A stretch of 6,068 nt of DNA, taken from sequence record NC_007821.1; one strand, written 5' to 3'. The DNA is from Enterobacteria phage WA13. Position numbers and translations under genes: made by a program. Within the stretch, counting starts at the first letter, position 1; the number at the start of each line of letters is the position of its first letter. Below, one piece after another: positions 726 through 6,068 of this stretch. The notes below the pieces were generated by a model. The model searched no databases, had not been told where the DNA came from, and saw only the letters and a list, made by a program, of their open reading frames with translations.

Positions 726-756
726 GCCCTCATAGGTTCACTACGAGGGCTTTTTT
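726..756 (+). terminator. GC-rich hairpin plus T6 tract immediately upstream of the gene A start; intrinsic-terminator-like
   Basis: gccctc (726-731) pairs with gagggc (745-750), with an inner tag/cta helix (733-735 / 741-743), followed by TTTTTT (751-756). The 3' arm is the gene A Shine-Dalgarno GAGGG (745-749). Confidence 0.45.
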
Positions 757-3059: not shown

Positions 3060-3073
3060 GGGGCTTCGGCCCC
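3060..3073 (+). terminator. J-F spacer hairpin GGGGCTTCGGCCCC (UUCG tetraloop); likely weak terminator / mRNA-stabilising structure
   Basis: Perfect 5-bp G/C stem closing a C(UUCG)G tetraloop. No strong U tract follows (tataagg), so termination would be partial. The F Shine-Dalgarno AAGGA lies at 3077-3081. Confidence 0.5.
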
Positions 3074-3088
3074 TATAAGGATTCTTAA

Positions 3089-4372
3089 ATGTCAAACGTG
3101 CAAACTTCCGCTGAACGTATTCCTCACGACCTTTCTCATCTGGTTTTTGATGCAGGCAAAATTGGTCGTTTAAAGGTTGTTTCTTGGACTCCTGTTGTTG
3201 CAGGTGATTCTTTTGAGCTTGATATGATTGGCGCTATTCGCCTTTCCCCGCTTCGTCGTGGCCTTGCTGTTGACTCTCGTGTTGACCTGTTCACGTTTTA
3301 TGTCCCTCATCGTCATGTATATGGTGAGCAGTGGATTGATTTTATGAAGCAAGGTGTTGATGCTGCTCCTTTGGCCCCTGTTCAGTGCTCTCGCGGTTGG
3401 GATAGTGCTCAGTATCTTGCTACTATTCCGTCTAGTAACTTAAAGGTTCCTAAGTTTCTTCATCAAGGTTACCTGAACATTTACAATAATTACTTTAAAG
3501 CTCCGTGGATGGATGACCTGACTTATGCCAACCCGTCTAATATGGAGGGTGAAGATGTTCGTTTTGGTGTTCGTGCATGTAACTTGAAAACTATTTGGAC
3601 TGCTCCGCTTCCTCCGGATACTGAAACCTCTCATTCTATGGAGACTGAAACCAACTCCATTGACATTATGGGTTTGCAGGCCGCTTATGCTCAATTACAT
3701 ACTGAGCAGGAGCGTGATTACTTCATGACTCGTTATCGTGATATTGTTAACGAATTTGGAGGTAGTACTTCTTATGATGCGGATAATCGTCCTTTGCTTG
3801 TTATGCATTCTGAGTTCTGGGCCTCAGGCTATGATGTTGACGGCACCGACCAAAGCTCTCTCGGTCAGTTCTCCGGTCGTGTCCAGCAGACGTTTAAGCA
3901 TTCAGTACCGCGATTCTTCTGCCCTGAGCATGGCACTATGTTCACACTCGCATTGGTCCGCTTCCCGCCGACTCATGAAATGGAGATGCATTACTTAGTT
4001 GGTAAAGAAGATTTGACTTATACTGATTTGGCTTGTGACCCTGCTTTGATGGCTAACTTGCCTCCTCGTGAGGTTAATATGTCTCAGTTCTTCCATTCTG
4101 GAAGTGCTAGTGCTAAGTTTAAGATCGCTGAAGGTCAGTGGTATCGCATGCAGCCTGATCGCGTTGCATTGCCGTATAACTATCTTGATGGTTTTCCGTT
4201 CTATAGCGCGATTCCGTCTGATGATATTAAGCAGCGCGTTCTGGTTAATACTGATAACTACGATGAGGTTTTCCAGTCTATGCAGCTTGCGCACTGGAAT
4301 ATGCAGACTAAGTTTAATTGCACCATTTATCGTAATATGCCGACCACTCGCGACTCTATTATGACCTCTTGA
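3089..4372 (+). CDS. F: Major capsid protein F
   Basis: 427-aa ORF. Long stretches match phiX174 F (MSN.QT.AER.PHDLSH, FTFYVPHRHVYGEQWI, GYLNIYNNYFKAPWM, DIMGLQAAYA, LVMHS..WASGYDVDGTDQ.SLGQFSGRVQQT.KHSVPRFF.PEHGTMFTLALVRFPPT, C-terminal PTTRDSIMTS). Confidence 0.95.
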   Translation: MSNVQTSAERIPHDLSHLVFDAGKIGRLKVVSWTPVVAGDSFELDMIGAIRLSPLRRGLAVDSRVDLFTFYVPHRHVYGEQWIDFMKQGVDAAPLAPVQCSRGWDSAQYLATIPSSNLKVPKFLHQGYLNIYNNYFKAPWMDDLTYANPSNMEGEDVRFGVRACNLKTIWTAPLPPDTETSHSMETETNSIDIMGLQAAYAQLHTEQERDYFMTRYRDIVNEFGGSTSYDADNRPLLVMHSEFWASGYDVDGTDQSSLGQFSGRVQQTFKHSVPRFFCPEHGTMFTLALVRFPPTHEMEMHYLVGKEDLTYTDLACDPALMANLPPREVNMSQFFHSGSASAKFKIAEGQWYRMQPDRVALPYNYLDGFPFYSAIPSDDIKQRVLVNTDNYDEVFQSMQLAHWNMQTKFNCTIYRNMPTTRDSIMTS

Positions 4373-4378
4373 TTATGT

Positions 4379-4392
4379 GGGGCTTCGGCCCC
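4379..4392 (+). terminator. F-G spacer hairpin GGGGCTTCGGCCCC (second identical copy); likely weak terminator / mRNA-stabilising structure
   Basis: Same 14-nt sequence as 3060-3073, followed by cTTTaagg and the G Shine-Dalgarno AAGGA (4396-4400). Confidence 0.5.
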
Positions 4393-4955: not shown

Positions 4956-5090
4956 AAGGCTGCCGCACTCCCGGTTAGATGCCTGCCTAGTGTAGGGCAG
5001 ACCGAGCCGTACGGAGATACCCGATAAACTAGGAACGTGGAAGGCGCAAGCCGCCTTCCCTCCTGCTAAGCCCCAAAAGGAGTTACAGCG
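4956..5090 (+). other. G-H intergenic region with stable hairpins; probable complementary (-) strand origin (DnaG primase-dependent, G4-type)
   Basis: 135-nt non-coding spacer, far longer than J-F or F-G. Contains a perfect 8-bp GC-rich hairpin (ggaaggcg / caagc / cgccttcc, 5039-5059), the palindrome ccgtacgg (5007-5014) and a ctgcc/ggcag stem-loop (4984-5000). From memory, the primase-dependent origin of alpha3/St-1/phiK maps between G and H, whereas G4 has it between F and G. H Shine-Dalgarno AAGGAG at 5077-5082. Confidence 0.4.
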
Positions 5091-6068
5091 ATGTTAGGTG
5101 CCGTTGTAGGTGGTATTGCTTCAGCCTTAGCTGGTGGAGCCGCTTCTAAGCTGTTTGGTGGTAAACCTGCCGCTCAAGCCGCTACCGAGTCCTCTGGCCT
5201 TTCTAATGGTCAAGGCGTTATTGGTATGGATCAAGATGCTGGTATTCAGTCAGCTATTCAGGGCTCTAATGTTCCCAATGGTCAGATTCCTGCCCCCACG
5301 CAGACTGGTGGCGTTATGTCTGATGCTAAAAATATGATTAAGAATGCTGGTAAAGATTTGCTTGATGGCGTTATGACCGCTGGAAGTGATCGCATTAAGC
5401 AGGCATTGGTTGATAAGTTGAGTGGTAACGATGCAAAGAAACAAGGACAAGCAACCCGTGATTACTTGGCTGCGGCCTTCCCTGAGCTCAATGCATGGGA
5501 ACGTGCTGGAGCTGGTGCTTCCGGTGCCGGATTGGAGTCTTCCGGCCAGAATCAGCAAAAGGAGTTGATGCGTATGCAGCTGGATACTCAGAAGGATATT
5601 GCTAAGATGCAAATGCATAATAATTTGCAGATTGCTGGTATTCAGTCCGCTACTTCTCGCGAGAATACGAAGGATTCAGTTTATGCTCAGAATGAGATGC
5701 TTAAATTTAATCAACAGGAGTCACAGGCACGCGTTGAGTCTATCCTCGCCAACACTGACCTTACGGCTAAACAGGCTGCCCATGAAATTATGAGAATGGC
5801 CCTTACTCGTGCTCAGGAGACTGGTCAGCATTTAACTAATAGTCAGATTATGGCATTGGAGAAAAAAGTTTATGCAGAAATCGGAAAAATTCATCAAGAT
5901 ACTCAAAACGCTCGTTATGGTAGCTCTCAAGTTACTGCTGCGGCGAAAGATGTTACGAATATGATTACCGATGCCACTTCTGGTGCTGCCGATTGGGTCT
6001 CTCAACAGTGGAATTCTTTCTTTAAAGATGGCAAGTCTAATGGTATTCCCCTCAATACCAGAAAATAA
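5091..6068 (+). CDS. H: Minor spike / DNA pilot protein H
   Basis: 325-aa ORF with AAGGAG 8 nt upstream. Matches phiX174 H (M.GA..GGIASALAGGA.SKLFGG, RDYLAAAFPELNAWERAGA, IAGIQSATSR.NTKD.VYAQNEML, QNARYGSS). The stop codon TAA is the last three bases of the window. Confidence 0.92.
   Translation: MLGAVVGGIASALAGGAASKLFGGKPAAQAATESSGLSNGQGVIGMDQDAGIQSAIQGSNVPNGQIPAPTQTGGVMSDAKNMIKNAGKDLLDGVMTAGSDRIKQALVDKLSGNDAKKQGQATRDYLAAAFPELNAWERAGAGASGAGLESSGQNQQKELMRMQLDTQKDIAKMQMHNNLQIAGIQSATSRENTKDSVYAQNEMLKFNQQESQARVESILANTDLTAKQAAHEIMRMALTRAQETGQHLTNSQIMALEKKVYAEIGKIHQDTQNARYGSSQVTAAAKDVTNMITDATSGAADWVSQQWNSFFKDGKSNGIPLNTRK

Follow-up and report, generated by a model that had tools for sequence, protein, structure and literature searches.

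A probable alpha3-clade orthologue of the phiX174 pA-TH promoter-terminator overlap in front of gene A of phage WA13

A sigma-70 promoter, a Rho-independent terminator and the ribosome-binding site of gene A probably share 60 bases in the genome of phage WA13, forming the alpha3-clade orthologue of the phiX174 pA-TH element; we put the probability of this reading at about 80%. An earlier note on this DNA had proposed that a hairpin at this position insulates gene A from transcription arriving from upstream. Support for that model comes from homology and computation, not from WA13 data, and the model restates the understood working of phiX174 pA-TH, so that the element as such is already known. 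In WA13 itself, the reading is supported by the sequence anatomy, by statistics that set the hairpin apart, by conservation and covariation, and by predicted folding energies; the position of the transcript start and the drop in transcription come from phiX174 only, and are presumed to be the same in WA13.

The window analyzed here is the whole stretch NC_007821.1 (6,068 bases), a complete circular microvirus genome of the Bullavirinae (Alphatrevirus, the alpha3-like clade). It is 99.3% identical over its full length to that of Escherichia phage WA45, and its layout matches that of the GenBank records. Gene A, encoding the replication initiation protein, is the plus-strand open reading frame at 759-2243 (ATG at 759-761), and it is annotated at the same place in WA45, alpha3 and other phages. 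Gene H ends at 6068, and positions 1-758 make up the long H-A region (758 nt) that is typical of the alpha3-like clade. The hairpin-promoter element (696-758) lies roughly 700-750 nt from gene H, with three small ORFs and a second hairpin (26-60) in between; the parts of the element and the three ORFs are on the plus strand.

The hairpin had been described as GCCCTC/GAGGGC with a T6 tract ending 2 nt before the gene A ATG, and direct reading confirmed this to the base. Its 5’ arm (726-731) is a GC-rich stretch between the -10 element and the predicted transcription start, and pairs with the 3’ arm (745-750) in an outer stem of 6 bp, 5 of which are G-C. RNA folding added an inner 3-bp stem absent from the earlier description (UAG at 733-735 with CUA at 741-743), which is separated from the outer stem by an A732/C744 mismatch and closes a 5-nt loop (736-740). 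The T6 tract (751-756), the sole T6 on the plus strand, begins directly after C750 and would serve both as the U-tract of the terminator and as the spacer between the Shine-Dalgarno (SD) sequence and the AUG; the dinucleotide GC (757-758) then leads into the ATG at 759. The 3’ arm had also been rightly identified as the gene A ribosome-binding site: it holds the SD sequence GAGG (745-748), 10 nt before the AUG, and the ribosome-binding site of phiX174 likewise lies in the 3’ stem. When positions 720-765 were folded as RNA, the predicted structure was exactly the 726-750 hairpin, with -14.7 kcal/mol (z = -3.07; matched by 1 of 200 shuffles), and its stability ranged from -13.5 to -14.7 kcal/mol.

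These features are those of an intrinsic terminator, namely a GC-rich stem-loop, an immediate U-tract and a site outside translated sequence, between the end of an upstream conserved ORF (699) and the start of gene A (759). The stop codon of that ORF precedes the stem by 27 nt, so ribosomes terminating there should leave the stem intact. A scan of the whole genome for runs of at least five T residues found six on the plus strand, and the hairpin at T6 (-13.5 kcal/mol, versus -6.2 for the next best) was the sole strong candidate terminator on the coding strand. Among 200 dinucleotide shuffles of the complete genome, only 4 had a hairpin of this strength at any T-run. By a d'Aubenton-Carafa-type score, the gene A hairpin scored +14.4 and was the sole positive site in the genome, as compared with +27.6 for phiX174 TH; the three hairpins after genes H, J and F had negative scores, which for J and F agrees with TJ and TF being weak in phiX174. 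The element resembles E. coli Rho-independent terminators in its GC-rich stem-loop, its immediate U-tract and its location downstream of a translated ORF, and differs from generic ones in that the hairpin lies in the stretch that a promoter transcribes first and has a ribosome-binding site for its 3’ arm.

A preset terminator scan gave no call at the gene A hairpin, because it limited loops to 8 nt and allowed no internal mismatch; it was replaced by the examination of every T-run of at least five residues, together with the shuffles. A search of both strands of the whole genome with Rfam covariance models gave no hit at E <= 1. We also considered a terminator on the minus strand, where the RNA hairpin reaches -17.5 kcal/mol, and rejected it, the homopolymer run there preceding the hairpin rather than following it. 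In the longest read-through segment folded (560-830), long-range pairs replaced the local hairpin in the minimum-energy structure, with the SD sequence still paired; we discounted this fold because termination depends on co-transcriptional local folding. Two further observations concern the genome at large. Runs of at least five T residues are depleted on the plus strand (6 observed, versus a mean of 15.3 in dinucleotide-preserving shuffles), and the hairpins after gene J (3060-3073) and gene F (4379-4392) have the identical sequence GGGGCTTCGGCCCC, with no real T-run following either.

Immediately upstream of the hairpin is the best sigma-70 match in the genome, the promoter PA, which combines TTGACA (696-701) and TATATT (720-725) across an 18-nt spacer and matches the consensus at 11 of 12 positions, all other candidates reaching 9 of 12. 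The -10 element, which the earlier note had placed at these same positions, directly abuts the 5’ arm, and the -35 element contains the TGA stop codon (697-699) of the upstream 58-aa ORF. The -35 is conserved in alpha3-like genomes, with the variant TTGGCA in phiK. An alternative -10-like sequence, TAAAAT at 708-713, would yield transcripts containing the whole stem; it was rejected as the main start, having no acceptable -35 element 16-18 nt upstream and being unlisted in the promoter scan.

The start of PA transcripts can be predicted by analogy. In the phiX174 RefSeq record a transcription start is annotated at 3962, immediately past the last base of the 5’ arm GCCTCC (3956-3961), and the same spacing in WA13 points to A732, 7 nt after the -10. 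A start at A732 lies past the 5’ arm, so that PA transcripts would lack this arm; the earlier note had them probably beginning inside or just past it and so missing the full stem. In 13 genomes a purine follows the 5’ arm directly. We take the phiX174 A mRNA to begin AAAUCUUGG, which agrees with the RefSeq start at 3962. Both the start at 732 and termination at the T-run are thus points that we infer from homology to phiX174.

In phiX174, the element has been characterized in several studies. The saturation mutagenesis study of this phage places the pA -10 element, TTTCAT, at 3950-3955 and the gene A ribosome-binding site, GGAGG, at 3969-3973 within the 3’ stem. In that study 3 of 23 mutations in the 5’ stem were detrimental, versus 17 of 27 in the 3’ stem and ribosome-binding site; since 5’-stem mutations were mostly tolerated, the phiX174 stem as such is not needed for fitness in that laboratory assay. 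The phiX174 RNA-seq study describes a ‘pA-TH promoter-terminator overlap’ with a net 0.29-fold change in transcription (about a 70% block), the strongest of the four terminators, and states that pA-TH ‘resets’ transcription before gene A; this result supports, by analogy, the earlier proposal that transcripts reading in from upstream terminate here and that gene A is insulated from them. Zhao et al. (2012) found that TH has the best hairpin score of the four phiX174 terminators, and noted the scarcity of PA transcripts, which they put down largely to instability.

The two elements are alike in having TTGACA, a -10 abutting a 6-nt GC-rich arm, an SD sequence in the 3’ arm, a T6 tract and the gene A ATG, and the phiX174 layout can be written TTTCAT|GCCTCCAAATCTTGGAGGC|TTTTTT|ATG. 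They differ in the sequence of the arms (GCCCTC/GAGGGC in WA13, GCCTCC/GGAGGC in phiX174), in the stem (6 + 3 bp interrupted by a mismatch and closed by a 5-nt loop, as compared with 8 bp and a 3-nt loop) and in the -10, which is the near-consensus TATATT behind an 18-nt spacer in WA13 and TTTCAT with a TRTG extension in phiX174. They also differ in position, the WA13 element being separated from the upstream gene H by about 700 nt that include three small ORFs, and that of phiX174 by 40 nt. The short spacer directly after gene H, from which TH takes its name, is absent from WA13, and this alters the context of the WA13 element, not its mechanism. By this comparison, the classical phiX174 arrangement, a promoter firing inside a terminator that has the ribosome-binding site as its 3’ arm, appears to have been kept in the alpha3 clade. 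Two chemostat-evolved phiX174 sequences, L104 (HM753708) and L105 (HM753684), carry small insertions (TG, or A) in the TH loop or inner stem within region 3950-3970, with the outer GCCTCC/GGAGGC stem intact, and in one chemostat-evolved line the -10 is changed from TTTCAT to TCTCAT.

According to the proposed model, polymerases coming from upstream, from the late genes and the three small ORFs (65-699), would transcribe both arms of the hairpin, which would form ahead of U6, and most of them would terminate at about 752-758. The hairpin would also cap and protect the 3’ ends of the upstream mRNAs, and any RNA reading through would keep the SD sequence GAGG locked in the stem. PA-initiated RNA, by starting at about A732 past the 5’ arm, would have an accessible SD sequence; since the stem cannot form without the 5’ arm, this RNA would escape termination and be translatable.

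The earlier note named late transcription as what gene A is shielded from, and this stands as a source of incoming polymerases but is incomplete, because gene H lies about 750 nt away and three conserved ORFs and a second hairpin intervene. That hairpin belongs to a second module of the same design, located directly after the gene H stop codon (1-67) and conserved in all alpha3-like genomes. The module has a TTGACA (4-9) and a TATG (23-26) resembling the TRTG extension of phiX174 pA, and its 15-bp hairpin (26-40/46-60; -20.8 kcal/mol, z = -5.0) holds AGGAG (51-55) in the 3’ arm; a T-rich tail follows (T4-T6 in 8 of 12 aligned relatives), and then the ATG (65) of a 122-codon ORF. By position, it is this second module (1-67), and not 696-758, that corresponds to the pA -35 of phiX174 and G4. 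The second hairpin may already stop part of late transcription. The gene A hairpin would therefore also be the terminator of the three-ORF cassette, late transcripts meeting two hairpins before gene A.

To examine conservation, the 45-80 bases before gene A were taken from the alpha3-like references, from additional alpha3-like contigs found in viral, metagenome and read-archive assemblies, from phiX174, S13, NC5 and WA4, and from five G4-like sequences. Searching metagenomes for relatives of gene A brought up mostly phiX174 spike-in concatemers, with only five upstream variants that were new, and a scan of viral contigs returned mostly the reference genomes again. Two of the database entries encountered are likely artefacts: FUFK010037421.1, a 328-kb metagenome contig made up of concatenated phiX174 units, and MZ417522.1, ‘Mycolicibacterium phage J1’ (24,953 nt), which contains a segment 100% identical to phiX174.

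The hairpin occurred in every alpha3-like, phiX174-like and G4-like sequence examined, NC35 excepted, and the same layout precedes gene A in three genera (Alphatrevirus, Sinsheimervirus and Gequatrovirus). The common order begins with TTGACA or a sequence one base away from it and continues with a -10, a 6-nt GC-rich arm and, after a loop, a purine-rich SD arm, T4-T6, 0-4 further bases and the ATG. The -10 abuts the 5’ arm in WA13, in phiX174 and in the G4-like phages ID2 and ID18, with 1-2 nt extra in ID52 and in the sequences L032 and L108-L112. The G4-like ID2, ID18 and ID52 share the composite layout (GCCTCC...GGAGGC, T-run, ATG) and differ from WA13 in having an 8-nt loop, an interrupted T-run (TTTCTT, TTTTCT) and an element located directly after gene H.

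Pairing was retained far more often than in slid controls. In the alpha3-like alignment 95% of stem cells were paired, as compared with 34-58% in the controls, and two pairs had changes on both sides; across 16 distinct sequences from the three genera the outer 6 bp were paired in 100%, versus at most 67% in the controls. Two adjacent outer pairs are swapped between clades, being C-G,U-A in the alpha3 clade and U-A,C-G in phiX174 and G4, and the inner stems of other alpha3-like phages show compensatory changes from UA to AU and from a mismatch to GC. The remaining outer-stem changes among alpha3-like phages are all C-to-T; as these leave G-U wobbles, they fit a plus-strand RNA better than DNA or the minus strand. 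The 3’ arm GAGGGC is invariant in 10 aligned alpha3-like sequences, and elsewhere in the clade it reads GAGGGT in L107 and GAGGAC in NC35. Most stem positions never vary, and the swap between genera may be a single historical event, so that the covariation evidence is modest. Judged from this alignment, the evidence for selection on pairing, drawn from few independent compensatory events, appears solid but not overwhelming, and conservation, as far as sequence comparison can tell, excludes chance as the origin of the hairpin.

The exception, NC35 (L011, positions 690-732, aligned to WA13 702-731), carries a 29-nt deletion that begins immediately past the -35 and takes out the PA spacer, the -10 and the 5’ arm up to its last base; a G-to-A change is found in its 3’ arm. 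The deletion puts GACTTT (with A at position 2 and T at position 6) 17 nt after the kept TTGACA, and the gene A ATG follows 5 nt on. A consensus scan of the first 800 bases of NC35 found no consensus-like promoter left, and the SD sequence is predicted to be open on read-through RNA (3.5 kcal/mol). NC35 may have a rebuilt weak promoter or a near-leaderless start, or may need read-through to express gene A. NC35 was nonetheless isolated as a phage, and the hairpin element, as seen from NC35 and from the phiX174 mutagenesis, is conserved but dispensable; its benefit is probably quantitative.

The earlier note had asked that both versions of the transcript be folded, and the result was as the model predicts. 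The computed cost of opening the SD sequence was 2.5-5.7 kcal/mol in RNAs starting at 730-733, which have no significant structure (z = +0.9), versus 11-12 kcal/mol in read-through RNA. Across 13 genomes, phiX174 included, read-through RNA was predicted to be costlier to open than PA-initiated RNA by 4.5-9.1 kcal/mol. Masking of the SD sequence is thus predicted to be selective for read-through transcripts, and we infer that read-through RNA is poorly translated for protein A. The same logic is found in the ‘fold-back inhibition’ of the IS10 and IS50 transposase genes, in which transcripts from outside include the two arms of a stem and so have their ribosome-binding site sequestered, and the element's own promoter starts inside the stem and yields a translatable mRNA. 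There the effect was shown by experiment and the stem is not known to be an intrinsic terminator as well, whereas the effect in WA13 is a predicted one.

It is possible, and we put it forward tentatively, that the stem acts as a switch between transcript isoforms, protein A being made only from PA-initiated mRNAs while the SD sequence of read-through RNA is sequestered. Were this true, synthesis of the cis-acting initiator would be tied to a single promoter irrespective of how strong late transcription is; the alpha3-like phages would use the design twice, the other instance being the module at 1-64 before the three-ORF cassette; and NC35 would be a natural counter-example, in which one deletion removed the -10 and the masking arm together and left gene A on read-through. 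If read-through mRNA is untranslatable for protein A, gene A levels obtained by qPCR or RNA-seq overestimate the translatable message. Current models of microvirus expression treat pA and TH as separate parts and leave masking of the ribosome-binding site out; such masking, if true, would be a modest addition to the classical system. As a compact design, the element could be useful in synthetic biology and in modelling how microviruses express their genes, and genome annotations could record PA, the terminator and the ribosome-binding site before gene A.

Another reading is that the main selected role of the stem is translational, keeping gene A untranslated on read-through mRNA, and that termination is a by-product of the U-rich spacer between the SD sequence and the AUG. 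The costlier opening of read-through RNA in 13 genomes speaks for it, as does the NC35 deletion, which takes the -10 and the 5’ arm together and leaves the SD sequence open. The phiX174 RNA-seq data, on the other hand, record a real loss of RNA across the element, the 5’-stem mutations of phiX174 that should unmask the SD sequence are mostly neutral, and NC35 is a single event; we regard this reading as unlikely.

It has also been suggested for phiX174 that the H-A region acts at the level of replication. The hairpin might then function mainly as DNA in the single-stranded genome, as a site for a limiting host factor in complementary-strand synthesis (the H/A ‘reduction’ or incompatibility sequence of phiX174 and G4), its terminator features being secondary. 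Brown et al. (2013), citing van der Avoort (1982, 1984), propose that the phiX174 H-A region may interact with a limiting component of host replication, and they found more parallel substitutions in this region than expected in chemostats. The insertions in the hairpin loop and inner stem of evolved phiX174 lines point the same way, and the WA13 hairpin does fold as DNA (-7.2 kcal/mol, z = -3.48). Against such a role, the C-to-T changes in the outer stem of alpha3-like phages are tolerated wobbles in RNA but G-T mismatches in DNA; the T-run 3’ of the stem, the abutting -10 and the SD sequence in the arm are left unexplained; and the alpha3-like element is about 700 nt from gene H, with another hairpin in between. 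The primase-type complementary-strand origin of these phages (alpha3, St-1 and phiK) is presumably in the G-H spacer, which also counts against it, and we consider a mainly DNA-level function rather improbable, noting that DNA-level and RNA-level roles are not mutually exclusive and could coexist. In WA13 the G-H spacer (4956-5090) is long (135 nt), GC-rich and visibly self-complementary.

We give still less credence to the hairpin being chiefly a stabilizer that protects the 3’ ends of upstream mRNAs from 3’ exonucleases, rather than an insulator of gene A. The terminators of phiX174 do double as mRNA-stabilizing signals, and disruption of TJ speeds decay (Hayashi et al., as cited at second hand). 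Stabilization would leave the -10 abutting the stem in all three genera unexplained, however, and since it depends on termination at the hairpin it is an added consequence rather than an alternative. The stabilizing and the translational readings are both variants of the same structure-based model. That there is no selected structure at all, the 3’ arm being just a ribosome-binding site and the 5’ arm just a GC-rich discriminator complementary to it by accident, is hardly credible: a nearly invariant 3’ arm is what a ribosome-binding site would give, most stem pairs never vary and phiX174 tolerates 5’-stem mutations, but the change of SD arm between genera (GAGGGC versus GGAGGC) is matched by a complementary change in the 5’ arm (GCCCTC versus GCCTCC), compensatory changes also occur in inner-stem pairs, pairing stands at 95-100% as compared with 30-67% in slid controls, and only 2% of genome shuffles give such a hairpin beside any T-run.

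The three small ORFs that separate the two modules are all on the plus strand. ORF1 (65-433; 122 aa), ORF2 (437-526; a 29-aa hydrophobic peptide) and ORF3 (523-699; 58 aa, with a GTG start) are conserved in all alpha3-like genomes, and ORF3 ends with the stop codon located inside the PA -35. Variable columns are in excess at third codon positions, the counts for the three positions being 44/34/98 in ORF1 and 11/6/30 in ORF3. The three ORFs had no match in PHROGs, Pfam, NCBIfam or PDB, and homologues of ORF3 were found only on alphatrevirus contigs of about 6.1 kb. Most records leave the three ORFs unannotated; they appear as hypothetical proteins only in phage Lilleven, and ORF1 is a misc_feature in MG945254. 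An overlapping 123-aa ORF (138-509) looks spurious and was set aside. ORF1 is broken by a 1-nt frameshift (at about 200-215) in the old alpha3 record (L001; NC_001330/X60322) and in St-1 (L007), and every other relative, like the resequenced alpha3 genome (DQ085810.2), has it intact; the frameshift is probably a sequencing error in the reference, at least in the case of alpha3.
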